Shown: positions 4,658 to 19,866, counted from the stretch's first letter. The stretch: DNA of 64,000 nucleotides from Acholeplasmataceae bacterium (GCA_963675245.1 OY775910.1:768001-832000), one strand, 5' to 3'. Program-made: numbers and translations. The notes: generated by a model from the letters alone, not told the origin.

Positions 4658-4733
4658 GGCTCTGTAGCTCAGTCGGTAGAGCAAAGGACTGAAAATCCTT
4701 GTGTCGGCAGTTCAATTCTGCCCGGAGCCACCA
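4658..4733 (+). tRNA. tRNA-Phe(GAA), anchor of the cassette array
   Basis: AAGGA-CTGAAAA-TCCTT anticodon arm, CCA end; last tRNA of the cluster. Confidence 0.97.
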
Positions 4734-4747
4734 TGGAGACCTTAAAT

Positions 4748-4774
4748 AAGCCATTTATAGTGGCTTTTTCTTTT
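4748..4774 (+). terminator. Intrinsic terminator of the tRNA cluster (copied in the array repeats)
   Basis: AAGCCAT-ttata-GTGGCTT followed by a T tract. Confidence 0.85.
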
Positions 4775-4864
4775 ATAAAACGCTTAAAAGTCAATCATTT
4801 GATTATATATTGTCTAGATTAATTAAACAATGGTATAATAAAAGAAAATTGTTGGTGGGGATTT

Positions 4865-5416
4865 ATGAAAAAAATTCTAATAGTTTTATTGTTTATTTTT
4901 TTGCTAACTGGTTGTGCTAAACAACGAACGGAAAATATTGTTGAAGATTTAAATGAGAGCAGTAATTTTGAATATGGCTTATTAATAGAAGTCACTAGTG
5001 ATATTAAAACTCATTTCAATATTAGTCCCGGTTTTGGAGTATATACACTTTTTGATTCATCCATTGAAATAGATATTCAGCAGGAAAGCATTCTAAGTTA
5101 TATAGATGAATATGAAACAACCACATATGATGTAACAGCATATCCAGATTATTCTGATGGTGGAGAATATATTACAATGATTTGGACGACCGATCCAGAT
5201 GTTCATATTTATGACTTATCTGTAGGTGATTCATATACTGAAGAGGAACTAAGTGAATATATGTTATCTTTAGGATTCACTCGAACAAACGATTCAGAAA
5301 ATATATTTATGTATAATAAAGAGCGATTAAATATTTCGATCTTCGTTGAGAGTAACATCATCACGAAGATGTATGTAAGAGTAGATATTACTAATAGATG
5401 GAATATTCAGTATTAA
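4865..5416 (+). CDS. Cassette 1: hypothetical lipoprotein
   Basis: MKK-hydrophobic-LLTGC lipobox; TGGTATAAT at 4831. Confidence 0.85.
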   Translation: MKKILIVLLFIFLLTGCAKQRTENIVEDLNESSNFEYGLLIEVTSDIKTHFNISPGFGVYTLFDSSIEIDIQQESILSYIDEYETTTYDVTAYPDYSDGGEYITMIWTTDPDVHIYDLSVGDSYTEEELSEYMLSLGFTRTNDSENIFMYNKERLNISIFVESNIITKMYVRVDITNRWNIQY

Positions 5417-5444
5417 TTAATAGAATGAATTAGTAAAAGTTGCT

Positions 5445-5538
5445 TGAAACGACTGAAAATCCTTGTGTCGGCAGTTCAATTCTGCCCGGAGCCACCATGG
5501 AGACCTTAAATAAGCCATTGATAGTGGCTTTTTCTTTT
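5445..5538 (+). repeat. R1: TGAAAC + tRNA-Phe 3' half + terminator
   Basis: 5451-5538 matches 4687-4774 at 87/88 nt. Confidence 0.98.
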
Positions 5539-5633
5539 GTATATGGGGAAGCTTGTCCTTGTATTAACCAAGTATTGTCCTCATTTGAAACTAATGCTAT
5601 AATTAAATTAATTAACACATGGGGGTAGAATTG

Positions 5634-6110
5634 ATGAAAAAAATAATTTTAATTTTTTTTGCAACATTCGTAGTTTTATTTATGTCAGCATGTAAACCAT
5701 ATACATATAACGGAAAAGAAATCGAGTCATTAAAATTCGTTGATATTGATTATTTTGGAGACTATAGACATGAATCAATCATTGATCTACAAAATGGAGA
5801 AGTACTCCACAGACAGTACTCGCCTGAAATCCCAACCCCAGATTATGAAATAGATTTTACATTTGATACTTCCGAAGTTGATTCTTTTTTGGATGAGTTT
5901 GGTTCATCAGGCATATTCAATTTAAAAGAAGAATATCATACAATCTATCATGTTGATGATGGTGGCGGATGGATATTTACAATTTATTATTCAGATGGAA
6001 CCGAAAAAACATCTACAGGAGATAATTATTGGTTAACGAAAGTTTTTGAAAAAGCAGGAACAGCGACTATCAATTTATACGGAGATAATTTATTTGATCC
6101 AGTACACTAG
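5634..6110 (+). CDS. Cassette 2: hypothetical lipoprotein
   Basis: MKKIILIFFATFVVLFMSAC lipobox; GGGGG RBS; TTGTCC-17-TATAAT promoter. Confidence 0.85.
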   Translation: MKKIILIFFATFVVLFMSACKPYTYNGKEIESLKFVDIDYFGDYRHESIIDLQNGEVLHRQYSPEIPTPDYEIDFTFDTSEVDSFLDEFGSSGIFNLKEEYHTIYHVDDGGGWIFTIYYSDGTEKTSTGDNYWLTKVFEKAGTATINLYGDNLFDPVH

Positions 6111-6131
6111 TCGATATATAGTTTGGCAGTA

Positions 6132-6223
6132 TGAAACGACTGAAAATTCTTGTGTCAGCGGTTCAATTCTGCCCGGAGCCACCATGGAGACCTTAAATAA
6201 GCCATTTATGATGGCTATTTCTT
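6132..6223 (+). repeat. R2: full repeat
   Basis: TGAAACGACTGAAAATTCTTGTGTCAGCGGTTCAATTCTGCCCGGAGCCACCATGGAGACCTTAAATAAGCCAT...ATGGCT. Confidence 0.97.
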
Positions 6224-6268
6224 ATTGAAGATGATATAATCAAAATATGATTTCAGGGGGTTACACTT

Positions 6269-6811
6269 ATGAAGAAGACTATTATATTTTTCATGATGAT
6301 ATTAATTTGTGTATTACTTTATTCTTGTAATGGATATAATAATTTAATGTATGATCACTTGAGTGATTTGAATAATTATATATCAGTTACGGGAACGATA
6401 GAAAATATAGTATTTTTTGATGCAGATTGGAATGAATTGAATTGGGATTTATCTGATGATGATATTCCGGATTTATATGAACACTTATGCATATATATCA
6501 AGTTTTACTCTGAAGATGACTATCTGCAATTCACAGGAACATCAAATATTCCCGAAAATTTTGAGTATCAGTCAGTATCTATAATGTTTGATATGATTAA
6601 AACAAATATTGAAATATTAAACGAGAATAGCTTTTTTAAAGAATCGATGATTGATGAAGAAGTTTCAATAGTTACTTCAAATTGGATATATATGGATACA
6701 AATTTTTTTCAAATAGTTGGGCTGAGCTTTGAGGAGATTTCCTACCTTGATCCAGAAGAAGGGTTAAATAATTATAGTACTTATATGGAAGACAATAGTT
6801 CATTGTTTTAG
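6269..6811 (+). CDS. Cassette 3: hypothetical acidic lipoprotein
   Basis: MKK-hydrophobic-LLYSC; TGATATAAT and AGGGGG upstream. Confidence 0.8.
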   Translation: MKKTIIFFMMILICVLLYSCNGYNNLMYDHLSDLNNYISVTGTIENIVFFDADWNELNWDLSDDDIPDLYEHLCIYIKFYSEDDYLQFTGTSNIPENFEYQSVSIMFDMIKTNIEILNENSFFKESMIDEEVSIVTSNWIYMDTNFFQIVGLSFEEISYLDPEEGLNNYSTYMEDNSSLF

Positions 6812-6825
6812 AAAGAAAGGGTACG

Positions 6826-6919
6826 TGTAACGACTGAAAATCCTTGTGTCGGCAGTTCAATTCTGCCCTGAGCAACCACGGAGACCTTAAATAAGCCATT
6901 TGTGATGGCTTATTCTTTT
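6826..6919 (+). repeat. R3: full repeat (GCAACCACGG allele)
   Basis: TGTAACGACTGAAAATCCTTGTGTCGGCAGTTCAATTCTGCCCTGAGCAACCACGGAGACC plus hairpin. Confidence 0.97.
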
Positions 6920-7008
6920 GTAAATTCAGTAAAAGTCCTTTTGCTTACTACGTTTTGTCGAAAACTAAATAGTAATGATATAATTAAAGAAAACTTTTTG
7001 GGGATCAC

Positions 7009-7512
7009 ATGAAAATAGAATATTTTATGATTGAACTTAAAGACATTTTAAAATCCTATTACTGTATATGGTATTTTTCTGAAAATAGCGAAAAGGATTT
7101 TTTAGTTAAAAGCAACAATAAGATTGCCGTATTTGATTATATTGAATCTGTAATTTTATATGCAAGTGTGAATAATATTGGATTATTGGATGAAAAACAG
7201 CATGCAATATACGATTTAAATTATATTCAAGATTTAGTTAATGGAAAAACATCTCACATTGATTGTAGCGATATACTTGATTTTTGGAATATAGTTGATG
7301 CAATATGTAATACACTGAATATTGTTTTCATTGGATTGGAACATAGATTTGATAAACTGTATGATAAATTATTCAGAGGATGTAATACAATATTAAATAA
7401 AGAAATATACACACCTCAATGGAGTAAAAGCGAAATTAATCAGATAAAAAAGTTATTGACAGAATTCCTATTGATTATTAGCAATGTGTTAAAAGGTGCA
7501 CGAAACGACTGA
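7009..7512 (+). CDS. Cassette 4: hypothetical protein (stop codon inside R4)
   Basis: 167-aa ORF with GGGGA RBS and TGATATAAT. Confidence 0.8.
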   Translation: MKIEYFMIELKDILKSYYCIWYFSENSEKDFLVKSNNKIAVFDYIESVILYASVNNIGLLDEKQHAIYDLNYIQDLVNGKTSHIDCSDILDFWNIVDAICNTLNIVFIGLEHRFDKLYDKLFRGCNTILNKEIYTPQWSKSEINQIKKLLTEFLLIISNVLKGARND

Positions 7513-7594
7513 AATTCCTTGTGTCGGCAGTTCAATTCTGCCCGGAGCAACCACGGAGATCTTAAATAAGCCATTGATAGTGGCTTTTTCTTTT
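7501..7594 (+). repeat. R4: full repeat (GCAACCACGG allele)
   Basis: CGAAACGACTGAAATTCCTTGTGTCGGCAGTTCAATTCTGCCCGGAGCAACCACGGAGATC plus hairpin. Confidence 0.97.
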
Positions 7595-7682
7595 GGAGAA
7601 TCATCAATAATCCCTTTGTCAACAATGCCTTGTCTAATTTTCATGAATAATATATAATTAAATAAAAAAGTGGGGAGTATAT

Positions 7683-7988
7683 ATGACACCAGAGATGGAA
7701 AAACTTTACAACAGTCTTAGTACGGTTAAAGTTAAAAATGTTGCACAAGCATATGATTATTTAGGTAACGAAGTAAATGGGCTTGATATGGATCATAAAT
7801 TGTCGTTTGAGATGACTCTAGAAGCTTTAAAGAACGTCAATAAAGATTATAAATTATTAAAAAAATATTATAAAGGTAAAATCGATACTAATCTTGAAAG
7901 TGTTTATACTAAGTATCCAGAAGATTCAGAAGAATATTTCTTTTTAAAGTGCTTAATTAGATTGACTGAATATAATGTCACGAGATAG
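7683..7988 (+). CDS. Cassette 5: hypothetical protein
   Basis: 101-aa ORF, GGGGAG RBS, TTGTCT-17-TATAAT. Confidence 0.8.
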   Translation: MTPEMEKLYNSLSTVKVKNVAQAYDYLGNEVNGLDMDHKLSFEMTLEALKNVNKDYKLLKKYYKGKIDTNLESVYTKYPEDSEEYFFLKCLIRLTEYNVTR

Positions 7989-8007
7989 AGGGTTTGACAT
8001 TTGTGTA

Positions 8008-8026
8008 TGAAACGACTGAAAATCTT
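8008..8026 (+). repeat. R5: truncated repeat (core only)
   Basis: (GTA)TGAAACGACTGAAAATCTT, then diverges. Confidence 0.9.
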
Positions 8027-8055
8027 TATATTTACTCGTAAAAGGGGAAGTTAAA

Positions 8056-8370
8056 ATGATATTGTCTGAAAAAACAGATTTAAGTTTCTTTCACGACTCA
8101 AGAGTTGGTGAGATTAATTATAATTATGCGAGCAAATCTTTAATTTTTCACTTGTGTTTAGATAGTTCATCATCAATTAGAAGAGAAGTTGAACTCAAAG
8201 CTAACATTGTTTTTTCTGTAGAATTAAATTCGATAGAGCCTTGGGGACCAGGAATATACATAAATGAGGTCACATTAGAAGATAAAATAGAATTTAAAAG
8301 GCTATCAATAATAATAAATTCAGGAGATATATTTGTTATTGATGCAAATTTATTTGAAATAATTATTTAA
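8056..8370 (+). CDS. Cassette 6: hypothetical protein (FHD motif; possibly immunity-like)
   Basis: 104-aa ORF, AGGGGA RBS. Confidence 0.75.
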   Translation: MILSEKTDLSFFHDSRVGEINYNYASKSLIFHLCLDSSSSIRREVELKANIVFSVELNSIEPWGPGIYINEVTLEDKIEFKRLSIIINSGDIFVIDANLFEIII

Positions 8371-8376
8371 CATGCA

Positions 8377-8400
8377 TGAAACGACTGAAAATCCTTGTGT
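8377..8400 (+). repeat. R6: truncated repeat
   Basis: TGAAACGACTGAAAATCCTTGTGT fused directly to TATAAT. Confidence 0.93.
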
Positions 8401-8455
8401 TATAATTATATAATTTAATAACAGGAACAAAAAACTAAGTAAGGAAGAAAATGTC

Positions 8456-8854
8456 ATGAAAACATTAAAGGATATTGAAATTAAGGATTTCAATGAAAGT
8501 AATCTCATTAGATTTAAAAATATAAATATTGATGAAGATACCGAAGTTTACAATGTCACCATGCATGTTTTTGTTAAGAATAATTTTCTACAATGCATAT
8601 CAGAATCATTGACTTTTCATTCTAAAGAACTGTTAACATTTTTTGATAACTGCAAAGACATTTATGATAAATTGACCGGAAACACAACTATTGAATCGAT
8701 AGAAAACAAAAAATGTATATTGACATTGAAAGCAATAAGCAAAGGATATATTGAAATATCTGGAACAATAGAGCAATTAATTGGTTCAAACAAGTGCGAA
8801 TTTACTCTACTTTTTGATCAAACATGTCTCAAGGATAAATTTAACATATCATAG
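8456..8854 (+). CDS. Cassette 7: hypothetical protein, possibly WapI-like immunity family
   Basis: 132 aa; IYDKLTG...KGYIEISGTI...FDQTCL pattern. Confidence 0.7.
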   Translation: MKTLKDIEIKDFNESNLIRFKNINIDEDTEVYNVTMHVFVKNNFLQCISESLTFHSKELLTFFDNCKDIYDKLTGNTTIESIENKKCILTLKAISKGYIEISGTIEQLIGSNKCEFTLLFDQTCLKDKFNIS

Positions 8855-8889
8855 AATTCTCAAATTATTATATTAGTGAAGTTGTTGCA

Positions 8890-8980
8890 GGAAACGACTG
8901 AAAATCCTTGTGTCGACAGTTCAATTCTGCCTGGAGCCACCATGGAGACCTTAAATAAGCCATTCAATATGGCTTTTTTT
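8890..8980 (+). repeat. R7: full repeat
   Basis: GGAAACGACTGAAAATCCTTGTGTCGACAGTTCAATTCTGCCTGGAGCCACCATGGAGACC plus hairpin. Confidence 0.97.
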
Positions 8981-9032
8981 ATTTCACTTTGATATAATTT
9001 AGTTAAGTAAATACGCAATTGGGGAGAAAAAT

Positions 9033-9455
9033 ATGATTAAATTCAGTTTTGTTAAATCAATCAAAAATGATTATGCTTTATTTGGTTCTGCAATAGTAGT
9101 AATACTGTTAATACCCTTTGTAGTTTATAATATTGTAAAAGGTGAATTTAATGCTGTATATGTTTTTGGATCAATAGATTTGTGCTTTATATTTTTATTT
9201 TTATGGCGGTTACTTGTAATCAAATCATATTTTAATGATTCTATAGAATTAGAAGGAACAATAACTAAAATTTGGTTTTATAAAGATAGAGGAAGAGTGG
9301 AATTTTACTATAAAATCGAAACCCGTGAATTTGGAAAGGGACATGCAATAATGAAGACAAAAGCTACTTTAGCATTAAATAAAGGCCAAAAAGTCAAACT
9401 ACTAATTAAAAATAGAAATCACCAGAAAGCAATTATTGCTGACTTGTATTCGTAG
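9033..9455 (+). CDS. Cassette 8: two-TM membrane protein with basic beta-rich C-terminal domain (DUF3592-like)
   Basis: Two hydrophobic segments, then GTIT...VEFYY...KGQKVKLL. Confidence 0.75.
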   Translation: MIKFSFVKSIKNDYALFGSAIVVILLIPFVVYNIVKGEFNAVYVFGSIDLCFIFLFLWRLLVIKSYFNDSIELEGTITKIWFYKDRGRVEFYYKIETREFGKGHAIMKTKATLALNKGQKVKLLIKNRNHQKAIIADLYS

Positions 9456-9479
9456 AAACATACAATATTTTATTTATGA

Positions 9480-9500
9480 GTATTAAACGGCAGAAAATTC
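9480..9500 (+). repeat. R8: degenerate core-only repeat
   Basis: GTATTAAACGGCAGAAAATTC matches GTATGAAACGACTGAAAATCC at 17/21, in the expected intergenic position. Confidence 0.75.
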
Positions 9501-9509
9501 AGTATTTTT

Positions 9510-9824
9510 GTGGAGAAACCAAATAGAATAATGCAAAAGACTGATTATCGAAAAGAATTGCTTATTGAATTTTCTTTCCTTGATATTGACAAAAAAAGAG
9601 ATTATTCCTTATACAGACCTCATCTTGTTGTACAAGGAGATTCAGAATATTTAGGTATAGCGTTTTATGCTGATACCATAAAAAAAGAAGGAAATAAATA
9701 TACAGCAAGAATTCATTGCATATATGAAGGTGTAAATTATAATAAACTACTCTCAAATGTTTTATTTGAAATAAGGGAGGGACCCATTATTTTAGCTAAA
9801 GGAAGGGTATTGAAGGAATTATAA
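9510..9824 (+). CDS. Cassette 9: stand-alone EF-Tu domain III-like protein (start uncertain, 9510 or 9531)
   Basis: YRPHLV...FEIREGPIILAKGRV resembles EF-Tu YRPQFY...FAIREGGRTVGAGVV. Confidence 0.7.
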   Translation: MEKPNRIMQKTDYRKELLIEFSFLDIDKKRDYSLYRPHLVVQGDSEYLGIAFYADTIKKEGNKYTARIHCIYEGVNYNKLLSNVLFEIREGPIILAKGRVLKEL

Positions 9825-9844
9825 TCTAACGTCACCGGTTTGTA

Positions 9845-9927
9845 TGAAACGACTGAAAATCCTTGTGTCGGCAGTTCAATTAACCAAGGAGACCTAAAAT
9901 AAGCCATTCTATGTGGCTTTTTCTTTT
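9845..9927 (+). repeat. R9: repeat with internal deletion
   Basis: ...GGCAGTTCAATT^AACCAAGGAGACC; lacks CTGCCCGGAGC. Confidence 0.96.
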
Positions 9928-10016
9928 ATATAAAGGGAGATTGTCGTTCTATCGATTGTATCTTGTTCAACTTTAATGAATAGTGTTATAATTAAAGAAA
10001 ATATTGGAGGGCCAAT

Positions 10017-10325
10017 ATGAACAAATATGTTAAGGGTTTAACATTTGAAAACATTATTGGTAAGTTAATTTTGGTTGGTATTACATACGAAAACAAAAAC
10101 GGTGATGTGTTGAGTTATAGACAATTTCATGGACGAGTTATACAAGCAGATTCAATTAAAGGTATAACAATTAAAAACGAAAGTAATCAAACATATAATT
10201 TACCACCAGATTTAAATTATTTTATAGTTGCTAAACCAGGTGAATATCGAGAAAAAGAATCGGGGATAGTCATTAGTGATCCAGATTATATCACCCAATG
10301 GATTTCAACACAATCAGACACATAA
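10017..10325 (+). CDS. Cassette 10: hypothetical protein
   Basis: 102 aa, GGAGGG RBS, TGTTATAAT; LPPDL...PGEYR...DPDY motifs. Confidence 0.82.
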   Translation: MNKYVKGLTFENIIGKLILVGITYENKNGDVLSYRQFHGRVIQADSIKGITIKNESNQTYNLPPDLNYFIVAKPGEYREKESGIVISDPDYITQWISTQSDT

Positions 10326-10365
10326 TTATTACTCATTGTATTATAATAACTTTATGAATAGAGTT

Positions 10366-10455
10366 TGAAACGACTGAAAATCCTTGTGTCGGCAGTTCAA
10401 TTCTGCCCGGAACCACCATGGAGAACTTAAATAAGCCATTTCGATGGCTTTTTTT
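10366..10455 (+). repeat. R10: full repeat
   Basis: TGAAACGACTGAAAATCCTTGTGTCGGCAGTTCAATTCTGCCCGGAACCACCATGGAGAAC plus hairpin. Confidence 0.97.
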
Positions 10456-10709
10456 ATGACTGATTAGGGATGATTCTTGTCATGACTCACACTTGTTATC
10501 ATGAATAGATTAGTGCTATAATAATAGTTAATTGGTAATCGATAACTTAAACATATTTATCACAAGCAAAAGTGAATCATAATAATAAGAGTTATTGTTT
10601 CATTTCAACTCAATATAGACACGCATGTATAACTTCAGGGGACAGCATGGACATGGTGTTTTTTATTTAAGGATTTCATCCATATATGATAAGAACGGAA
10701 GGAGAACAT

Positions 10710-13700
10710 ATGAAAGGATCAAAACTATTCAATAGGGGGTTTTCTCTAAAACTACTCATGTTTTTAACGATGTGTTGTTTGATGTTACTTGTATCACCAA
10801 TTATTATTGTTGCTACTAAAAGTACACTAGTCACATCTTTTACCAGCAATTATAATGACCAAAATGAAGTCTATCAAGCGGCTAATGCATTTAACGAAGC
10901 GCTTGTTGAAGAAGGAATTGTGCTTCTAAAAAACGAGAATCAAGCATTACCGTTAGCTGCTGGATCTAAAGTTAATGTTCTGGGTAAGAATTCTCATGAT
11001 ATCGATCTTGGAAACACAACCATAGGTTCAATAAATTATGATGAAGCATTCATATCACCAATGACGTTATATGAGAGTCTGGAAGCAGTTGGTTATATAC
11101 TTAATCCTGACCTAATATCTTTCTACGAAAATGATAATTTATCAGGTACTGGTAGACATGTGTCAAATCTTGGCATATGGCCAGTACCAATCTCAATTGG
11201 TGAAACACCTCAAGAAAACTACTCACAAAGCCTATTAAGTACTTATGCTGATTATTCGGATGCATCTATTGTTGTATTCACCAGAATAGGTGGTATAGGG
11301 TTTGATTTGCCAACCACCATGACAGATGCTTTGGGTGATCCAGATGTCGGATCAGAAGAAGGAGACCATTACCTTGAGTTAAATTTGAATGAAGAGGCGT
11401 TATTATTATCACTCGAAAGTGATCCTAGCGTTAGTAAGGTCATTGTGATCATCAATGCTAGTCAACCGATGGAACTTGGCTTTTTAAACGATTCTGAGAC
11501 GTATTCTAAAATTAAAGCTGCGCTTTGGGTTGGAGGACCAGGAGTATCTGGTGTATCTGCCATTGGTCGTGTATTGGTTGGTGATATTAATCCATCAGGA
11601 CATCTTGTAGATACGTATATAACAGATTTTAAAACCGATCCAACATGGTTTAATTTAGTGAATCGTGAAAATAAAAACAGATATGGCATGATGATTGATG
11701 ATATGTTCACAGAAACGAATGTCAGTTTTGTCGATTATGAAGAGGGAATTTATGGTGGTTATCGTTATTGGGAAACTGCGGGTTTTGACGCCAATGACAA
11801 CTGGAGTTGGTATGACAATCATGTTGTCTATCCATTTGGTTATGGATTGAGTTATTCGACATTTAATTGGGAACTTGTTGGTTCACCTATTTTTCCAGAA
11901 ACACTCACAGTTGATTCAAGCATTTCAATAACCATTAGGGTTACGAATACTAGCAGTGTACCGGGCAAGGACGTTGTTCAACTATACTATACACCACCTT
12001 ATTATGATGGTGGTATTGAAAAATCATATATCAGGTTGGCTGATTTTGAAAAAACACCGTTGTTAAATCCTTCAGAATCAGCAGATATTACATTGACAGT
12101 TTCATTAAAGGATCTCGCATCATATGATTATCAGGATGCGAACAACGATGGATTTATAGGGTATGAACTTGAGGCGGGTAGTTATATCTTTAATGTCTTA
12201 CAAAATGCGAATATCCGTTCAACAAATGGTGTTTCAGATATGACCTTAGTCGTACCAGTGGCACCAGGAAATGGTGCAACTTCAGGACAGACTGGACTTC
12301 ATTTTGCCTATGATGAAGTCACGGGACACGAGATTGAAAATCTATTTAATGATGTATCACAAAAAGCGCTTAATGGACAGTTGGATAATCTTAACACACA
12401 AGCAGTTAAGGATAGCGGCGGTGTGATGCATGTGATGAGTCGTGCTACGGCTAAAGGAGGGCTATCTGGAACCATACCAATAGAATACCCAAGTGATGCT
12501 GATCGAACTATCACACAAACGTTTATTGATAACGGAAATATACCAGTAGATACCACATCACGTAATGTCGCAGATATCACACAACCATGGTATCAGACAA
12601 CATATCCAATTCAAGCTGAAAGTGAAACGGGCACTGTATCCGTTTTACTAAAAGATTTGATTGGTTTAGATTATAATGATCCACTATGGGAAACATTTAT
12701 GAATCAAATGACCTATCAAGAAATGGCGACATTAATTGGTGATGGTACATTCCATACGATACCGATATCAAGGTTAGGTAAGCCATGGTCCATTGAACTT
12801 AGTGGGACAACTGGCTTGATTCCAAGACAAGAGACGACGACGTTAGAATCTATGAATGAGGCAATTGCATGTGTTTATGCAACACAACCCGTTGTAGCGG
12901 CTACTTGGAATAAATCGTTGGTTTATGATTTCGGTGAAATGGTTGGTGAAGAATCTATTTGGGGTAATACTGAATTTGCTTATTCGGGTATTTATGCTCC
13001 AGGATTAAATATCCATCGATCACCATTTTCAGGACGCAACTTTGAATATTATAGTGAAGACGCTGTTCTATCAGCTAAGATTGCTAAAGCATTTTCGTCT
13101 GGTGCTTACTCAAAAGGACTTAGTACAATTATGAATCATCTTGTCTTAAATGAGCAAGAAACAAATCGAGAAGGACTCACTTCATGGGTGGATGAACAAA
13201 CATTGCGTGAAATATATTTATACCCATTTGAAAAAGTAATAAAAAATGGACAAACACATGGCGCGATGGTTTCTTATAGTAAGATTGGTAATACATGGAC
13301 CAGTACGAGTTATGCATTACTCACAGAACTTTTGAAAGATGAATGGGGATATGAAGGCATGATCATGACGGATTGGGTGACATATTCATCCAAAATGGAA
13401 TGGATGATTCGTGCAGGTGTTGATCTATTATTAACCGGAAATGAACCGGCGGTTTTAAATTATGAAGGTGAGGATTTAACGGCCACTCAAGCATGGGCAT
13501 TACGTAATGCATCAAAAGATGTTTTGTTCTATGTTGCAAATAGTAATGCTATGATTCCGAGATTATACTATGAAGGTGAATCATCTGAAGTCGAAGATTT
13601 CACAAGAGGAGTAGCGTATACACTTGATGTTTCTGGTGTACAGACAAATTATGAATTAGACACACCATTAAGTGTGACCTATACTGCTGAAGGATTACCT

Positions 13701-15095
13701 AATGAACTACTAATGGATCCTTCGACTGGTATTCTTACTGGCACACTGCCTGTAGCCAATCCTAGCCAGTGGTGGAATACGCCACCAACTTCTTATACAT
13801 TTACAGTAACGGTAACAGTCCCCGAAGGTACAACAATCAATACGTCCATATCAAAGGAATTTACGATTCATCAAGCGAGTATGCAAGAAATATATCTTCT
13901 TGATACAGCTACAGTAGGTGAAACTTATTATTCAGATGCTATTAGAGTTTCATCAAGTATTCCCGTTGATGCTACTGATATTATGTTCGAAATAGATCCC
14001 GGATTAGCGCTTTATAATTTGGTTGTCAGAGAACCATCTCAACCATTACCAGATGGTTTGGTTATGAATCCGGATGGTACGATTACCGGCATACCAACAA
14101 CACCAAGTGAACCGGTCGATATTACGGTTCAAGTGACTGCACCTGGATTTGTTACCACATATATTACAAGAACCATATCTGTGCGACCTGCAGATCCAAA
14201 AATCGTAATGAATAATGTGATATTACCTAAAGCTGAAGTCAATCAAACATATCAAGCAATTTTTGTAGCAACCGGTAGCGATGAGATTACTTTCACATCA
14301 GATGAAATACCTATAGGTTTAGCTCTAAATCCAAACGGCACACTTTCTGGCACCCCTGAAGAAGTAGGAACACACATGTTTCATGTAACAGCATCTGCAA
14401 TCGATATGGTTCCAGTTTCCGCTGTTGTCGTTCTTGTTGTCTACGACACCATCGAAATTTCTAGTTTAACATTCCAAGATAAGTTACTAGAATCTGGACA
14501 AGTTGGTATATCATATAACGCTTTATTATCTGCTAGTGGTGCTGACGATATTGTCTTTACATCACATGATTTGCCACCTGGAATCACATTAAATGATAAC
14601 GGAACTCTAACAGGAATTCCAACAGAGGCTGGTGTGTATTTATTTCACGTAACAGCAACCGCGTCAGGTATGCCATCGAGTGAGGCTATCATGTGCCTTA
14701 GCATTACTGAAACAGAGATCATTTTACCTGTAATTACATTAAACCACATTGAATTAGACGCTGGTGAAGTTGGGTCAGCATATAGTGCAACAATTACAGC
14801 AAGTGGTGCAACAAATATCATATTCTCTACAGAAGATCAGTTACCAACAGGGTTGACTTTATCAACAGATGGCATACTTTCAGGTACACCAACCGATGCA
14901 GGCACATATATATTTAAAGTGACAGCATCAGCTGATGGAACAACAGAAGCTACTGCATTTATTGCCATTCAAATCAATCCAATCGTAGCATCATCAACGG
15001 GTTGTGGGTCAACAATAAATATGTCGGCTGCAATCGTGTCTTTTATGTTAATTATGATAGCTTGTGCCTACTTAGTAAGTAGGAAAACATACTAA
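10710..15095 (+). CDS. Cassette 11: membrane-anchored GH3 glycoside hydrolase (C-domain first) with repeated Ig-like domains
   Basis: GIVLLKNE, YPFGYGLSY, GKDVVQLY, GRNFEYYSED, IMTDW; LPxGLxLxxxGxLSGTP repeats; N- and C-terminal hydrophobic segments. Confidence 0.9.
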   Translation: MKGSKLFNRGFSLKLLMFLTMCCLMLLVSPIIIVATKSTLVTSFTSNYNDQNEVYQAANAFNEALVEEGIVLLKNENQALPLAAGSKVNVLGKNSHDIDLGNTTIGSINYDEAFISPMTLYESLEAVGYILNPDLISFYENDNLSGTGRHVSNLGIWPVPISIGETPQENYSQSLLSTYADYSDASIVVFTRIGGIGFDLPTTMTDALGDPDVGSEEGDHYLELNLNEEALLLSLESDPSVSKVIVIINASQPMELGFLNDSETYSKIKAALWVGGPGVSGVSAIGRVLVGDINPSGHLVDTYITDFKTDPTWFNLVNRENKNRYGMMIDDMFTETNVSFVDYEEGIYGGYRYWETAGFDANDNWSWYDNHVVYPFGYGLSYSTFNWELVGSPIFPETLTVDSSISITIRVTNTSSVPGKDVVQLYYTPPYYDGGIEKSYIRLADFEKTPLLNPSESADITLTVSLKDLASYDYQDANNDGFIGYELEAGSYIFNVLQNANIRSTNGVSDMTLVVPVAPGNGATSGQTGLHFAYDEVTGHEIENLFNDVSQKALNGQLDNLNTQAVKDSGGVMHVMSRATAKGGLSGTIPIEYPSDADRTITQTFIDNGNIPVDTTSRNVADITQPWYQTTYPIQAESETGTVSVLLKDLIGLDYNDPLWETFMNQMTYQEMATLIGDGTFHTIPISRLGKPWSIELSGTTGLIPRQETTTLESMNEAIACVYATQPVVAATWNKSLVYDFGEMVGEESIWGNTEFAYSGIYAPGLNIHRSPFSGRNFEYYSEDAVLSAKIAKAFSSGAYSKGLSTIMNHLVLNEQETNREGLTSWVDEQTLREIYLYPFEKVIKNGQTHGAMVSYSKIGNTWTSTSYALLTELLKDEWGYEGMIMTDWVTYSSKMEWMIRAGVDLLLTGNEPAVLNYEGEDLTATQAWALRNASKDVLFYVANSNAMIPRLYYEGESSEVEDFTRGVAYTLDVSGVQTNYELDTPLSVTYTAEGLPNELLMDPSTGILTGTLPVANPSQWWNTPPTSYTFTVTVTVPEGTTINTSISKEFTIHQASMQEIYLLDTATVGETYYSDAIRVSSSIPVDATDIMFEIDPGLALYNLVVREPSQPLPDGLVMNPDGTITGIPTTPSEPVDITVQVTAPGFVTTYITRTISVRPADPKIVMNNVILPKAEVNQTYQAIFVATGSDEITFTSDEIPIGLALNPNGTLSGTPEEVGTHMFHVTASAIDMVPVSAVVVLVVYDTIEISSLTFQDKLLESGQVGISYNALLSASGADDIVFTSHDLPPGITLNDNGTLTGIPTEAGVYLFHVTATASGMPSSEAIMCLSITETEIILPVITLNHIELDAGEVGSAYSATITASGATNIIFSTEDQLPTGLTLSTDGILSGTPTDAGTYIFKVTASADGTTEATAFIAIQINPIVASSTGCGSTINMSAAIVSFMLIMIACAYLVSRKTY

Positions 15096-15202
15096 AATCA
15101 TAAAAAAGAAGACTACATGGAAGTTGATTTGTCATAAAAGATAGTGCTATCAATTTTCTTATAGATAGTTTAATCTTTACCAGATACATCTAGGTAGAGA
15201 AA

Positions 15203-15285
15203 AAAATCCTTGTGTCGGCTGTTCAATTTCGCCTAGAGCCACCACGGAAATCTTGAATAAGCCATTTGAAATGGCTTTTTCTTTT
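15203..15285 (+). repeat. R11: diverged repeat lacking the left arm
   Basis: AAAATCCTTGTGTCGGCTGTTCAATTTCGCCTAGAGCCACCACGGAAATCTTGAATAAGCCAT...ATGGCTTTTTCTTTT. Confidence 0.93.
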
Positions 15286-15325
15286 GTGTGTTATACTCAA
15301 ACTATAACCAATAAAGGGTGATTAT

Positions 15326-15877
15326 ATGTCTTTATATAATAAACATTATCAAAAACAAAATTATTTTGGTGAACCATATCCTGAGTTACTCGAATATTTT
15401 AATAAACTTGATAGAGAATTAACTGTGTTGGATTTAGGATGTGGTCAAGGTCGAGATGTTTTAGGTATTGGAAAAATGGGGTTTAGTGTTGTCGGTATTG
15501 ATCTATCAGAAGTAGGGATTAATCAACTTAATCAGTATGCTAAAAATGAAAATCTAAATGTCAAAGGAATTGTTTGTGATTTGGACAGATTTGATCAAGT
15601 GAGTGAGTTTGATATTGTGTTATTAGATTCCATGTTTCACTTTTATAAAAATGACATTGATATTGAAACGGCAAGATTGCATCGAATATTGAATAGCATA
15701 AAACCAAATGGTATTGTTATAATTGTTTTACAAGAAAATAAGTTTAGAATTAATTACTTAAAAAGTATCATATTAAGTGATTTATATCATTTTGTTATTG
15801 ATGTAGAAGAGCATCTGATTTACAAAGAAGTAAATAGTAAGTTTTATATGATTTCTGTTCAAAAAATCAACTATTAG
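15326..15877 (+). CDS. Cassette 12: class I SAM-dependent methyltransferase (TehB-like)
   Basis: VLDLGCGQGRD, VVGIDLS motifs. Confidence 0.88.
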   Translation: MSLYNKHYQKQNYFGEPYPELLEYFNKLDRELTVLDLGCGQGRDVLGIGKMGFSVVGIDLSEVGINQLNQYAKNENLNVKGIVCDLDRFDQVSEFDIVLLDSMFHFYKNDIDIETARLHRILNSIKPNGIVIIVLQENKFRINYLKSIILSDLYHFVIDVEEHLIYKEVNSKFYMISVQKINY

Positions 15878-15914
15878 TATAAAATTACTAAATTTTCATG
15901 TGTTCGAAATTCAA
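15877..15914 (+). repeat. R12: highly decayed repeat relic
   Basis: 26/38 ungapped identity to the consensus left part, directly at a stop codon; TTAAAAAAGCCAT follows at ~15941. Confidence 0.55.
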
Positions 15915-15991
15915 GAATATAAAGCTTCAGTGTAGAAGCTTTAAAAAAGCCATGCTATAATAAATTTACTTAGTTATTATAAGGAGAATAT

Positions 15992-16285
15992 ATGAAAAAA
16001 GCTGTCTTGATATTAACGATTATCGATTGGCTGATCTTAGGGTTTTTACTTTATTTTGCTGGTTCAATCATTGTAACTGTTGCTAATAACAATGATGGTT
16101 GGGCAACACTTGCTTTAGCCGTTGTATCCTTATATTCATTTTTTGGTATGATTATCTTATGTATCCCAATGGTTATACTTGTGAAGAAATTGACTTTAAA
16201 AGAAACGAAAATATATTTCTATTCAACACTAGGTAATGTATTATTAACGGTAATCATGTTCTCGATCGCTTTGCTATTTTCATAA
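15992..16285 (+). CDS. Small 3-TM membrane protein
   Basis: Hydrophobic ORF, AAGGAG RBS, TGCTATAAT. Confidence 0.8.
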   Translation: MKKAVLILTIIDWLILGFLLYFAGSIIVTVANNNDGWATLALAVVSLYSFFGMIILCIPMVILVKKLTLKETKIYFYSTLGNVLLTVIMFSIALLFS

Positions 16286-16314
16286 ACACGATATTTAAAA
16301 TGATTCATACATCA

Positions 16315-16341
16315 CTTAAAAAAGCCACTCATGTGGCTTTT
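16315..16341 (+). terminator. Terminator related to the array repeat (R13 relic)
   Basis: CTTAAAAAAGCCAC-tcat-GTGGCTTTT versus CTTAAATAAGCCAT-N5-GTGGCTTTT. Confidence 0.65.
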
Positions 16342-16474
16342 AGTCTGTAATTTTTGAATAAAACTATAAATTAAAGTGGTGTTATAATCTATTCTTTTTT
16401 AAAATGAAAATGTAAAGATGTCGTAGTATAATGAGAGTATCTAGTGGTCGCGATGATAAAAGGAGAATATAATT

Positions 16475-16915
16475 ATGAGTCAAGGTATAAAACATTTTCG
16501 AAAATTTGATTTTTCAGGGATTAAATTTATTTGTTTTCTAGCAATTGAATTAATCATTATTGTGGGTGGCACGATTTATTTGACAATTATTTCTGAAAAT
16601 ATGACACTTGCCTTAATTGTACTTGTGTTTTCTTTTCTGATTGCAATTGTTATAACAATGTTGGGGTTGTTTTTAACCACGATAACAAGGATTAATCTGT
16701 CATATATAGTGATTCATATTGCTCTAGCATACCCGGTCATCCGTGCATGGCTGGATATGATACAAGAAGAAGACTGGTTGCAAGTACTTGTTGATTTTTT
16801 GGTGCTATCACCCATGTTAGGTGGCTTGCTGCTGAGTTTACCATTGATACTAGTTTTTAGAAAAAAAACTGCAGCAAAACAAACAGTTAGTAAAATTGAA
16901 GAAATAGACAATTAA
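16475..16915 (+). CDS. Hypothetical membrane protein
   Basis: About 4 hydrophobic segments, AAGGAG RBS. Confidence 0.8.
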   Translation: MSQGIKHFRKFDFSGIKFICFLAIELIIIVGGTIYLTIISENMTLALIVLVFSFLIAIVITMLGLFLTTITRINLSYIVIHIALAYPVIRAWLDMIQEEDWLQVLVDFLVLSPMLGGLLLSLPLILVFRKKTAAKQTVSKIEEIDN

Positions 16916-16937
16916 GCCACGCTTTGTGGCTTTTTTT
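16913..16937 (+). terminator. Terminator, possibly a repeat relic (R14)
   Basis: TAAGCCAC-gcttt-GTGGCTTTTTTT. Confidence 0.6.
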
Positions 16938-17039
16938 GAATCATAAGATGTGATTTTTGCAATTAATCTTTTAAATATGGCATTTATTAGACATTTTTGA
17001 TATCCTTAATTTAGACACAAACGTCCATGGAGGGGTCAT

Positions 17040-17390
17040 ATGTTTCAAGTTATTGTGGATGTATTATCAAGCGATTTAATATATAACATTTTAGAGGCGT
17101 TGTTGATATTTAATGTCATTTTAGTTTATGTTACGTACATCGATATGCAAATCAATGACCGTATTTTTATTATTAAACTCATCTTTAAAAAACGACAATT
17201 TGATTGGAAAAAAATGAATCAAAAATTTAATATATTACTCATTCTAATGATTGTAACAACCTTTTTTATACCGTTTTTATTGATGATATTTTATGATATA
17301 AGAGCGCTAATGTCTGTCGTTGTAATCGGGTATTTCGCGAGTATAATCTTATATAGTCTATATATTGTAAAATCATCAACTGTATTATAA
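17040..17390 (+). CDS. Hypothetical membrane protein
   Basis: Hydrophobic ORF, GGAGGGG RBS. Confidence 0.75.
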   Translation: MFQVIVDVLSSDLIYNILEALLIFNVILVYVTYIDMQINDRIFIIKLIFKKRQFDWKKMNQKFNILLILMIVTTFFIPFLLMIFYDIRALMSVVVIGYFASIILYSLYIVKSSTVL

Positions 17391-17405
17391 GAAGAGGAGA
17401 TTATT

Positions 17406-17789
17406 ATGCCACATCTAATATATATTATGGGTGCCTATTTGTTTTATATAATATCGATTATGGTTCATGTGTTAGTCATTAATAAAAAAATTGATTACAC
17501 ACAAATCAATGGTGGAAGAAGCGAATCTTTTGAAGCACAATATAAAATATCGATTGTTAGCATCGTTATTTTAGTAATCGGTTTTGTTATCATTATCGTA
17601 TATAATGTTTACCCACCAATCACGAAGACATACTTTAGTGTCATTTTAATGGGGTTGATGTCGTTATATTGGTTATTAGGTTTTGTGATGCAATTATTAG
17701 GTACTTCATTTGAAAGAACATATTTAACACCGGTTCTATTGCTAGGATTTGTGTCGCATGTGATGTTATTGATTGAGTACTTTATGTAA
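17406..17789 (+). CDS. Hypothetical 4-TM membrane protein
   Basis: Hydrophobic ORF with INGGR and GTSFER motifs. Confidence 0.8.
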   Translation: MPHLIYIMGAYLFYIISIMVHVLVINKKIDYTQINGGRSESFEAQYKISIVSIVILVIGFVIIIVYNVYPPITKTYFSVILMGLMSLYWLLGFVMQLLGTSFERTYLTPVLLLGFVSHVMLLIEYFM

Positions 17790-17801
17790 GGAGTGATTGA
17801 C

Positions 17802-18581
17802 ATGGATGTTAAGTATTGTTTGATTACTGGTGCAGCAGGAGGATTCGGAAAAGCATATACACATACGCTAATTGAACGGGGATACACGCTCATCTTAACG
17901 GATTTCAATGCTGATCATTTGAATGCCTTAAAAGAGGAATGTCAAAGGCGTTATGGAAAAGAGGTTACAACCTTTATTTCAGATATTAGACAAGATGGTG
18001 GTATGCAAAACATATGGCATTATTTAATGCTAAATGATATTAAACTATCGCTTGTCGTGAATACCGTAGGTTTGGAAATTGAAGGGTTATTCAGCGATTT
18101 AAAACCTGAACATATGTCAAACATCGTTAAGACGAATGTTGTTGGTTTTACGAATGTCATTGCATATAGTTTATTATATAAAGCTGAAAAGATGGAGATC
18201 ATTAATTTTGGCTCAATGGCGGGATTTTATGCAATGCCATTTAAAGCCGTATATGCAGCATCAAAGGCCTATATCATTAGTCTGTCAAGAGCACTTCATT
18301 TGGAATTAAAAACAGATGGTGTATCGATATTAGTTGTATGTCCTGCAGGTGTACCAACTAGACAAGAAGTCATTGATCGTATTAAACGACAAGGTGTTTA
18401 TGGTAAGTTGACAACATCTAAGGTGGATGAAGTAGTTAACAAATCCATTATGTTGGTTCGAAAGGGAAAAGCGGTATATGTTCCAAAATGTTTCAATCGG
18501 TTCTTAGTATTTATCACAAAATTATTACCTAGTCTATTGGCAAGTAAGTTAATTGCTAAAAGATGGACGCCAAAAGATTAA
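17802..18581 (+). CDS. SDR family oxidoreductase
   Basis: ITGAAGGFG and YAASK motifs. Confidence 0.92.
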   Translation: MDVKYCLITGAAGGFGKAYTHTLIERGYTLILTDFNADHLNALKEECQRRYGKEVTTFISDIRQDGGMQNIWHYLMLNDIKLSLVVNTVGLEIEGLFSDLKPEHMSNIVKTNVVGFTNVIAYSLLYKAEKMEIINFGSMAGFYAMPFKAVYAASKAYIISLSRALHLELKTDGVSILVVCPAGVPTRQEVIDRIKRQGVYGKLTTSKVDEVVNKSIMLVRKGKAVYVPKCFNRFLVFITKLLPSLLASKLIAKRWTPKD

Positions 18582-18593
18582 AAAACGGGGGTT

Positions 18594-19514
18594 ATGATGG
18601 TTAAATATAAAAAAATAATCAGTGTCATATTAATGGGGTTGTTGTGTCTTGTTTTGATGCCCGTAAGTTATGGTGATATGGGACCAAAGCCAACAACGGA
18701 TGTTGAAATTATTGGTTTGGATGAACCATACTATTTTGATTTACTCGCTTATTACGATGAGGAAGACGTTATTGTACTTGATGATAATCAAATCATTGAA
18801 AGAATTGATTATGATTACTATCTAGATGATTTTCCTAGTGTTTTGAATGGTTACCGAGATGAAGATGGGTTTGGATCATATACACTTTATAGCTTTGCAC
18901 CACATACTATTAGGCAAAATGACAATGTTTATCATTGTGGTTATTATATGCCACCTGATGTTTTTAAAATTGTGTTAGTCTTAGAGTCAGGTGATATGAT
19001 TGTCTCAGACATAATAGAAAAAGAATTGTTTGCTGCATATATTACGTTTGATCTAAGTGATTTTTCGATCACTCAATCAGATAGTGAAGCGTACAACGAT
19101 ATTATGATTTATTATCCAGGTGATCTCGCAGAAGAAAGCATACCAGTTGGGGCAGTCATTATTCAAGTGGTTGTCACAGTGGTTTTAACGATTTTGGTTG
19201 AAGGGCTTATTTTATTTGCGTTTGGTTATCGATCTAAAAAGTCGTTCTTGCTCATTTTATATGTCAATCTTGCGACACAAGTATTATTGTATCTAGCCAT
19301 TGATATAAGCTATTTATATGCGAACTTCTTTGGATTCTTTGGCGCATTATTCTTAGGTGAAGCAGTCGTATTTATTGCAGAAGCGATTCTTTATGGTACA
19401 CTTCTAAAGGAACATTCAAAAACAAAGGCTGTGATATACGCAATTGTTGCTAATCTTGTCAGTTTAGTAGGTGGTATATTGAGTGCGATGTTCCTTCTAT
19501 CCTTGATGATATAA
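18594..19514 (+). CDS. Membrane protein with signal peptide, extracellular domain and 4 C-terminal TMs
   Basis: DMGPKP after signal peptide; hydrophobic C-terminus. Confidence 0.82.
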   Translation: MMVKYKKIISVILMGLLCLVLMPVSYGDMGPKPTTDVEIIGLDEPYYFDLLAYYDEEDVIVLDDNQIIERIDYDYYLDDFPSVLNGYRDEDGFGSYTLYSFAPHTIRQNDNVYHCGYYMPPDVFKIVLVLESGDMIVSDIIEKELFAAYITFDLSDFSITQSDSEAYNDIMIYYPGDLAEESIPVGAVIIQVVVTVVLTILVEGLILFAFGYRSKKSFLLILYVNLATQVLLYLAIDISYLYANFFGFFGALFLGEAVVFIAEAILYGTLLKEHSKTKAVIYAIVANLVSLVGGILSAMFLLSLMI

Positions 19515-19579
19515 TCAAATCATTATCAAATATTTAAACATTTTGTTAAAATTGATAAATAAATAGTTAGGAGTAGCAT

Positions 19580-19762
19580 ATGTTTGAGTATAAAGTGATT
19601 AAAGACATCTATAATTATTCAGAACAACCTCATGATTATGAACGCTTTGAGGAAAAATTGAATGAATTGGCTAAAGAGGGATGGCGTGTTGTATCAGCCC
19701 AAGCAGTGAGTGATAGTTTTACGCACTTAACATGTTTTGCAGTTTTAGAAAGAAACGCATAA
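19580..19762 (+). CDS. DUF4177-like small protein
   Basis: FEYKV...LNELAKEGWRVV motif. Confidence 0.8.
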   Translation: MFEYKVIKDIYNYSEQPHDYERFEEKLNELAKEGWRVVSAQAVSDSFTHLTCFAVLERNA

Positions 19763-19866
19763 GAACACGCTAATTGGCGTGTTTTTTCTTGCATTTAAAA
19801 AGAAGTATGTTATCATAATATTAACCAATTGTTTTGAACATCAAAATAAAATAAGGGAGAATATTT

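Follow-up and report, generated by a model that had tools for sequence, protein, structure and literature searches.

Downstream of the tRNA-Phe gene in a 64,000-nt stretch of an Acholeplasmataceae bacterium genome (GCA_963675245.1, OY775910.1:768001-832000; "the window" below, with positions counted from its first letter) lies a row of unrelated genes, all on the + strand, in which gene after gene is followed by a copy of one short, partly tRNA-derived site. We consider it highly probable that this row is made up of mobile cassettes, non-autonomous and in most cases with a single gene, and that it was built by conservative site-specific recombination in which the crossover falls in or beside the anticodon loop of tRNA-Phe; the likeliest enzyme would be an integrase of about 290 aa that acts in trans. 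The same site closes genes in related genomes and in metagenomes, where near-identical cassettes stand between different neighbours and their identity breaks at the site.

A repeat unit anchored at tRNA-Phe

The genome is a single contig of 1,626,300 bp with 42 tRNA genes, of which only one is tRNA-Phe. The window opens within an rRNA operon, behind which stand 11 tRNA genes that end with this tRNA-Phe (GAA; 4658-4733), and repeat finding downstream of it returned four nested families of direct repeats. Read 5' to 3', the repeat unit comprises an arm, the tRNA from GACTGAAAATCC to CCA, the trailer TGGAGACCTTAAAT and an AAGCCA..TGGCTT terminator. The core GACTGAAAATCC is the anticodon stem and loop, and tRNA identity begins there in every copy, the copies being in register; the arm ahead of it is conserved, is not tRNA sequence, and most often reads ATGAAAC or TTGAAAC (consensus TGCATGAAAC).

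Ten copies of the site, each with arm and core, follow tRNA-Phe on the same strand. Six are full, running from core to CCA with trailer and terminator, at 5451, 6138, 6832, 7507, 8896 and 10372, and their trailers vary as (T/C)GGAGA(C/T/A)CTTAAAT. (We give copy positions as the G of GACTG, which is 6 nt 3' of the starts used in an earlier reading of this DNA from the sequence alone, hereafter the sequence-only reading, which included TGAAAC.) The copies at 8014 and 8383 consist of arm and core only, in that at 9851 an internal deletion has removed the acceptor strand together with the T arm's 3' side, and that at 9487 is degenerate. Further downstream, the copy at 15198 is a relic that lacks the GAAAC arm and retains GGTAGAG of the D arm, the copy at 15877 is barely recognizable by eye, and a terminator relic at about 16320-16345, missed by the terminator scan, is visible by eye. 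The sequence-only reading had described a repeat unit after tRNA-Phe, on one strand and between unrelated open reading frames (ORFs), and this is borne out by the register of the copies and by BLASTP, in which the 16 ORFs of 4865-17789 gave no pair at E < 0.1 and are thus mutually unrelated. The array of copies that it listed is also real, although several of them (8014, 8383, 9487, 9851, 15198 and 15877) proved to be partial or degenerate.

The repetition is far beyond chance. At up to 3 mismatches the core 19-mer has 9 matches against 0.00 expected, and the 20-mer of trailer and terminator has 9 against 0.01. Searched genome-wide at the same tolerance, arm plus core matched 10 times, always on the + strand in window positions 4682-10389 and once as tRNA-Phe itself, with no match elsewhere in the 1.63-Mb genome; the dispersal of the repeats that the sequence-only reading had named as evidence against itself was thus not seen. 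Terminator-like hairpins number 18 against 4.2 ± 2.4 in shuffles, among them AAGCCA...TGGCTT hairpins on the + strand at 4748, 5512, 6200, 6890, 7568, 8957, 9901, 10433, 15259 and 16914. In an Rfam scan the true rRNAs and tRNAs scored and the tRNA half copies did not. The regions ahead of the ORFs, which we call heads, are in this genus repeats of 102-175 nt with 63-86% identity; TG-extended -10 matches, which are consensus matches only, occur in them at 4810-4839, 5575-5603, 6955-6984 and 10493-10522. Array proper has a G+C content of 29.3%, against 33.9% for the genome. It is carried on the leading strand about 90 kb from the likely origin (skew minimum at ~0.68 Mb).

Eight of the nine site-to-site intervals in 4687-10371 hold one + strand ORF of at least 50 aa. 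The rule of one gene per interval, proposed from the sequence alone, therefore stands for these eight and fails for 8896-9850, which has two ORFs with the degenerate site 9487 between them. From stop codon to site the distances are 30, 23, 16, -10, 21, 8, 37, 22 and 42 nt.

We compared the tRNA-Phe locus in eight of the nine other genomes of the genus, namely those with an exact tRNA-Phe core. In seven of the eight the site is empty: only about 0.8-3.5 kb separate tRNA-Phe from sequence homologous to the window from ~19.8 kb onward, and 4734-19780 is therefore an insertion. Alignment to these array-free genomes extends beyond the tRNA end, to 4775 in the nearest of them. The eighth genome, G006, has a different array made of other genes, with five exact core copies, the tRNA included. 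Both the empty sites and the differing content agree with what the sequence-only reading anticipated for relatives, and arrays are patchy, being present in 2 of the 10 genomes of the genus when this one is counted. One cassette is common to the two arrays: window 7503-8034 matches G006 at 91.5%, in fifth place here and beside the tRNA there, and the two diverge immediately 3' of GACTGAAAATC. The first cassette here, which encodes a lipoprotein, has 80% nucleotide identity to a cassette of another genus; the two are homologous from the ribosome-binding region as far as the site and not beyond it. Two distal stretches of the island, 17406-17789 and 19536-19755, recur in G006 (67% and 82% nucleotide identity) and in no other genome of the genus, which makes this distal end of the island older than the array.

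The site family and cassette exchange

A scan of 172 genomes of the bacterial family found multi-copy arrays in a second genus. A species-level genome collection contains the exact 19-mer of arm and core in 20 stretches, of which 14 belong to records titled Mariniplasma, Acholeplasmataceae, Acholeplasmatales, Ca. Izemoplasmatales, Bacillota or 'bacterium'; the other six, in unrelated taxa, are probably chance matches. Metagenome contigs contributed at least 157 stretches with the site, the richest being a 9.5-kb contig on which 8 sites are exact and 10 are found if up to 3 mismatches are allowed. The site and interval counts that follow cover the collected genome-derived and metagenome loci.

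The 198 unique occurrences of the core divide into 9 tRNA-Phe genes, 143 sites with the type-1 arm, 9 with a second arm type (TGCAaTTTTG) and 37 with other or degenerate arms, among which some are not cassette sites and three are a look-alike arm of another tRNA gene. The consensus of the 143 type-1 sites is TGCATGAAAC, then GACTGAAAATCC, then aTgtgTcg. Only 44 of the 143 keep the tRNA T arm and 3' half, and it follows both that the conserved site is about 22 nt with a weak further 8 nt, not the tRNA half, and that most cassettes entered at cassette sites. The conserved 22 nt are non-palindromic, with arms that by eye are not inverted repeats. The site also forms no hairpin: when 40 sites without the T arm were folded as single-stranded DNA, the two strands gave mean z scores of -0.29 and -0.27 against shuffles, which upholds the earlier claim that hairpins of the attC type are lacking. 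Within one array (locus L106, ~6761, minus strand) an inverted pair of cores, GACTGAAAATGC, 9 nt and the reverse complement of arm plus core, makes a small palindrome. In another, a ten-site array on contig 49 of G116 (locus L025), the first site, at 8998, has a tRNA-type arm (..AAAG) without a tRNA 5' half; there is no tRNA gene in 20 kb of that contig, ordinary-looking genes lie upstream of the array, and its anchor seems to be either a tRNA relic or an independent site.

The regularity of the window recurs across the family. Over 135 site-to-site intervals the median length is 691 nt, with quartiles of 529 and 1019; 99 of them contain a single same-strand ORF of at least 50 aa, the longest ORF is on the strand of the site in 122, and the median distance from stop codon to site start is 37.5 nt. 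We scanned 103 distinct cassette proteins encoded in relatives and metagenomes, and 72 of them matched no Pfam family at E ≤ 1e-4. The 31 that do include Fic/DOC proteins (4), GNAT acetyltransferases (4), HNH nucleases (3), methyltransferases (2) and RDD proteins (2), with an Mrr nuclease, an MFS transporter, YccF, and Ig-like and repeat surface domains besides. This cargo (lipoproteins, Fic/DOC, GNAT, HNH, Mrr and methyltransferases) points to surface variation and conflict systems. No recombinase or transposase family was found in the 103 cassette ORFs. Eight of the 135 intervals exceed 2 kb and hold 20 ORFs, of which the 17 scanned gave no recombinase family, and tblastn of these large intervals was negative too.

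Comparison of the loci shows that cassettes are exchanged between arrays as units. Nineteen pairs of homologous cassettes were found between loci, and 15 remain once four that represent one array seen twice are set aside; 11 of the 15 have a comparable neighbour, which differs in 11 of 11, and four have none. In the pairs that we inspected, with 99.8, 99.2, 98.4 and 93.7% identity, unrelated flanks turn identical inside the site at the left boundary, and at the right boundary identity stops just 3' of GACTGAAAATCC. In one pair it continues for 36 nt through a common short head, to the start codon of a different ORF. Breaks at the site are what site recombination would predict, and in these alignments they are hard to square with island decay or homologous exchange. 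The metagenome loci L079 and L144 both have, downstream of a shared cassette, this 36-nt head, with a -10-like TATAAT and a ribosome-binding site, before different ORFs; short heads may thus be reused ahead of different genes, which bears on how cassettes form.

The four public sequencing runs that we considered offer contigs only, and contigs confirm each cassette at even depth; in the two runs from the probable source organism, unitigs break at each repeat. The few listed joints, whose sides reach 20-29 nt inside repeats, were not used, nor were parts that lacked coverage, and an apparent backward joint at 5245 is an overlap of repeat ends. One run, from a groundwater metagenome, includes a 515-nt contig that spans 8407-8921 and differs from it at 5 positions, and a 1503-nt contig that overlaps the stretch at 8374-8436 only, a hint that cassette 7 (8395-8907) is present in another context in that metagenome.

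Candidate recombinases, proposed mechanism and rival explanations

PF00589 has no match in the 64-kb window, and its six matches in the genome are at least 227 kb away; tblastn with seven tyrosine recombinases (E ≤ 1e-4) found none in 67 metagenome and 17 genome-derived array loci. The sequence-only reading had called the array integrase-less, a description that extends to every array examined, within it and beside it. Serine recombinases are absent from this genome and present in the five other array genomes checked.

The six tyrosine recombinases of this genome are an XerD-like and an XerC-like protein, integrases A and B, and a tandem pair. Integrases A and B, each about 290 aa, belong to islands at tRNA-Lys(CTT) and tRNA-Gln, respectively, and both islands have displaced tRNA 3' halves that start in the anticodon loop. 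The tRNA-Lys(CTT) island (C1:121853-139240) is ~17 kb long and includes a gene whose N-terminus looks DNA methyltransferase-like by eye; the tRNA-Gln island (C1:990416-995299) is 4.8 kb. At C1:1131524-1133448 the tandem genes (323 and 318 aa) are adjacent and are followed by a 392-aa ORF with an N-terminus that by eye is ATPase-like, and a similar pair occurs in the array-free genome G008 of the same genus. A dif-like 28-mer lies at C1:1494095-1494122, about 3 kb from the XerD-like gene and near the cumulative GC-skew maximum (~1.48 Mb). When the four non-Xer recombinases were compared with the recombinase loci of the five array genomes G006, G116, G120, G122 and G142, identity never exceeded 42%, and a shared accessory integrase from this genome was rejected on that ground. 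The family-wide survey of tyrosine recombinases, with at least 150 entries that were mostly Xer-like, was used as per-genome counts. A phage origin of the site was rejected as well: the 22-mer had 0 matches in viral contigs, and the 17-mer had 5, all in unrelated coding sequence without the arm.

A better candidate comes from relatives. In five related genomes, homologues of a 289-aa PF00589 integrase lie directly 3' of tRNA-Phe in the opposite orientation, and the distal arm of one such element (TGCAGCAAAG) equals the cassette arm at 7 of 10 positions. The five loci concerned are L033 (contig 76 of G132) and L231-L234. The G132 element, 6.2 kb long and with its own integrase, has an arm that ends in ..CATCTTG, like the rarer second arm type.

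In the mechanism that we propose, a cassette consists of a head, one ORF and a 3' attachment site made of the arm TGCATGAAAC and the core GACTGAAAATCC, and its head is either the tRNA 3' half with trailer, terminator and promoter-like region or a short promoter with a ribosome-binding leader. Recombination of the cassette site with the tRNA anticodon arm would insert a circle, and a cassette that carries the tRNA 3' half would on insertion restore the single essential tRNA-Phe; one without it could enter only at a cassette site further down the array. Recombination of site with site would excise or reshuffle cassettes. We infer circular intermediates and a crossover point in or next to the anticodon loop. 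The enzyme would be a tyrosine integrase, small at about 290 aa, that recognizes the anticodon arm of tRNA-Phe and is supplied in trans, and the cassettes would travel as passengers of tRNA-Phe-specific integrases that circulate in these lineages, carried by elements at the same site. Since the present genome has no such integrase, the array is probably static until an enzyme arrives.

Several observations weigh against this model. The candidate integrase was not found at E ≤ 1e-30 in this genome or in G006, G112, G115, G116, G120, G122, G140 and G142, the genomes that do have it hold at most 3 core copies, and no integrase-bearing element with the exact type-1 arm was found. In G112, G115, G116 and G122, metagenome-assembled genomes (MAGs) that are 79-92% complete, the only PF00589 matches are two that are Xer-like, which would suit a housekeeping or unrecognized enzyme no less than a transient one. 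Nor does every array have the tRNA as its anchor, since in 9 of 45 array loci more than 2.5 kb of upstream sequence contains no tRNA-Phe. The picture of repeated insertion at one tRNA site, drawn from the sequence alone, is accordingly too narrow, given these loci and the mere 44 of 143 sites with a 3' half. Run contigs contain neither an excised circle nor an empty-site variant, although they break at each repeat and rare circles would be invisible there. Promoter calls, finally, are consensus matches only, and their number (83) is to be set against 71.7 ± 8.7 in shuffles.

A second reading, which we entertain tentatively and think has a modest chance of being right, is that the arrays are a second kind of integron in wall-less Bacillota (records titled Acholeplasmataceae, Mariniplasma and Ca. 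Izemoplasmatales). The array would then be a standing platform with an autonomous, tRNA-derived, double-strand site of 22 nt, served by a housekeeping or unrecognized chromosomal recombinase instead of by visiting elements. The site, the counterpart of attC, would have originated as the anticodon arm of tRNA-Phe and would since have come to work away from the tRNA and without its 3' half.

The same cassettes might also be run by the chromosomal XerC-like and XerD-like pair acting on the 22-nt site, as happens in modules and integrative elements with dif-like sites. Of the tyrosine recombinases of this genome, these two alone have orthologues in the other array genomes with which it was compared (83-85% identity in G006; 70-73% in G116, G120, G122 and G142). 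Four array genomes have just these two PF00589 matches, an array genome titled Izemoplasmatales has the Xer-like pair and one more, and the site, at about 22-30 bp, is as short as those of simple recombinases. Its sequence, however, is unlike the dif-like candidate (11 of 27 matches, a value reached by 1975 of 2000 shuffles), its arms are by eye not inverted repeats, and Xer-like genes are in all ten genomes of the genus whereas arrays are in two; we therefore judge this explanation unlikely.

The intervals might instead be what is left of integrase-bearing islands that stacked at tRNA-Phe and decayed to one gene each. Such elements do use the tRNA-Phe site in relatives, the distal island from 10.4 to 17 kb is indeed decayed (the relics at 15198 and 15877 and the terminator-only relics), and stacked integrations with partial tRNAs between them are described, in the accessible text of the source, for tycheposons (10.1101/2020.12.28.424599). 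Random decay gives no reason to expect a conserved arm unrelated to the tRNA on 143 sites, a single same-strand ORF in 99 of 135 intervals, a median of 37.5 nt from stop codon to site, or heads with terminator and promoter-like sequence; nor does it sit well with the lack of any integrase fragment in the 84 loci or with cassettes that are 98-99.8% identical between different neighbours, and we hold it to be quite improbable. More improbable still, in our view, is a process with no site-specific enzyme, in which cells take up DNA and exchange cassettes through homologous recombination at the repeated heads and sites. The 'minimal mobile element' loci of Neisseria are the comparison here, and heads of 102-175 nt at 63-86% identity could support some unequal crossing-over. 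In 99 of the 143 sites, however, no more than about 22-30 nt are shared, which on the usual understanding is too little, and too abruptly delimited, for exchange of the RecA type; identity breaks at the site and not within the longer heads; and the anchor is exactly the anticodon arm, a classical target of tyrosine integrases. On balance we prefer the reading of cassettes mobilized in trans by a tRNA-Phe-specific integrase.

Organization of the island and comparison with known systems

The whole variable island, absent from the tRNA-Phe locus of seven same-genus genomes, spans 4734-19780, and all features named here are on the + strand. The tRNA-Phe gene at 4658-4733, the only one of the genome, provides the anchor core GACTGAAAATCC at 4687-4698 and is followed at 4734-4775 by the trailer TGGAGACCTTAAAT and the intrinsic terminator of the rRNA-tRNA operon, a block that recurs in cassette heads. 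Cassette 1 (4699-5462) has a head with the tRNA 3' half, terminator and promoter-like TTGTCT..TGGTATAAT, a lipoprotein ORF at 4865-5416 and its site at 5441-5462. Cassettes 2 (5463-6149) and 3 (6150-6843) each combine a head with a lipoprotein-like ORF, at 5619-6110 and 6269-6811, and end in sites at 6128-6149 and 6822-6843, the latter with the arm GTGTAAC. Cassette 4 (6844-7518) has a head and an ORF at 7009-7512 whose 3' end overlaps the arm of the site at 7497-7518, and cassette 5 (7519-8025), with a head, a 101-aa ORF at 7683-7988 and a site at 8004-8025, is the one that is 91.5% identical to the first cassette of G006. Cassette 6 (8026-8394) has a short head without the tRNA 3' half, an ORF at 8056-8370 and a site at 8373-8394; cassette 7 (8395-8907) likewise has a short head, with a site at 8886-8907 and an ORF at 8456-8854 that gives a weak WapI-like immunity match under the Pfam cut-off. 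Cassette 8 (8908-9498) comprises a head, a membrane-protein ORF at 9033-9455 and the degenerate site at about 9477-9498. Cassette 9 (9499-9862) has no head, an ORF at 9510-9824 and a site at 9841-9862, and cassette 10 (9863-10383) has a head in which the tRNA 3' half is partly deleted, an ORF at 10017-10325 and a site at 10362-10383. The last displaced tRNA 3' half, with trailer and terminator, fills 10384-10450. Most ORFs between the copies are without a Pfam family.

Beyond this point the island changes character. A surface glycoside hydrolase of 1469 aa with GH3 and He_PIG repeats is encoded at 10686-15095, in the variable island and not flanked by type-1 sites, and this 4.4-kb gene may have been a separate arrival. 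It is followed at 15187-15277 by part of a D arm, a damaged anticodon arm, a T arm, CCA, trailer and terminator with no cassette arm, which looks like a decayed longer copy of tRNA-Phe rather than a cassette site. Between this and a very degenerate core copy at about 15880 lies an S-adenosylmethionine (SAM)-methyltransferase ORF, a decayed cassette (15326-15877), with 57% protein identity to a cassette that has two perfect flanking sites in metagenome locus L096; the distal island is therefore an old, decayed array. Region 15877-16937 holds two small membrane-protein ORFs (15992-16285 and 16475-16915), each followed by an AAGCCA..TGGCTT terminator relic.

Integrons assemble arrays of attC-bearing cassettes at an attI site through IntI, and clusters of attC sites without an integrase (CALINs) are also found. 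Their cassettes are promoterless and are expressed from a common Pc promoter. The arrays described here resemble them in having mostly single-ORF cassettes of about 0.5-1 kb in the same orientation with a site right after the stop codon, in a cargo largely of unknown function, from which acetyltransferases, Fic/DOC proteins and nucleases can be named, and in the shuffling of cassettes between arrays. Unlike integrons, they lack an adjacent intI, and as far as the searches went the genome has none either; the site is a non-palindromic, tRNA-derived 22 nt without a hairpin, with a tRNA gene as anchor; and many cassettes have a terminator of their own and a promoter-like head, the promoters being consensus matches.

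Cis-mobilizable elements (CIMEs) and the tandem accretion at attachment (att) sites of integrative and conjugative or integrative and mobilizable elements (ICEs, IMEs), as in the Streptococcus ICESt1 family, involve a few multi-kilobase remnants beside a resident ICE. Like the cassettes they are att-bounded and have no recombination or transfer genes, CIMEs relying on the integrase of a related element at the same site; unlike them, the cassettes are one-gene units of ~0.7 kb, up to ten in a row, that have a conserved arm in at least two orders and no resident helper. Xer-dependent modules, such as those at pdif sites of Acinetobacter plasmids and the integrative elements that use dif, are small, recombinase-less modules that depend on an enzyme from another locus and whose dif-like sites of ~28 bp have two 11-bp arms and a 6-bp spacer. 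They share with the cassettes their small size and lack of a recombinase, whereas the site here is not dif-like. With islands of tRNA-targeting integrases the cassettes share a direct repeat of the tRNA 3' part from the anticodon loop, but not an integrase of their own.

The general kind of process is in print. According to the accessible text on the additive flexible islands of Alteromonas (PMC4898812), tRNA genes, with tRNA-Phe among the most used, are hot spots for the addition of cassettes and leave partial tRNA repeats; the cassettes described there include metal-resistance and hydrogenase clusters, and that text defines no common cassette-borne site, in contrast to the one gene and 22-nt site here. 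In Prochlorococcus, as far as the accessible text of the source goes, successive integrations of tycheposons at one tRNA push older elements inward with partial tRNAs between them, and tycheposons carry their own integrase and further hallmark genes (10.1101/2020.12.28.424599), neither of which the arrays have. No tycheposon hallmark family was found among the 19 ORFs of the window or the 103 cassette ORFs. Our literature searches, whose coverage left subscription journals mostly outside, found no description of the minimal single-gene form with a conserved autonomous site, and the impression of an undescribed system given by the sequence-only reading thus survives for this integrase-less form and not for the general kind, which the Alteromonas and Prochlorococcus texts, as far as accessible, already describe.

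What is new here is the one-gene unit, the conserved cassette-borne arm that at least two orders have in common, the loss of the tRNA 3' half from many sites, the arrays (9 of 45 loci) with no tRNA-Phe in more than 2.5 kb upstream, and a regularity like that of integrons. Integrons are the textbook platform for accumulating single genes as cassettes and, to our knowledge, are largely confined to Gram-negative lineages. The outcome here is the same and the route different: bacteria with small genomes and no cell wall use a short site derived from a tRNA anticodon arm, the arrays encode no recombinase, and cassettes are shuffled between species and even orders. The system lends itself to testing, as its site has just 22 nt, over 150 contigs from the environment contain it and one complete genome offers ten cassettes, and it bears on how non-autonomous cassettes are made and moved and on the influx of accessory genes into streamlined bacteria. 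If the arrays should prove to be a second kind of integron, and similar ones to stand at other tRNAs in other phyla, integrase-less cassette arrays built on a tRNA anticodon arm would be a general and overlooked route of gene capture.

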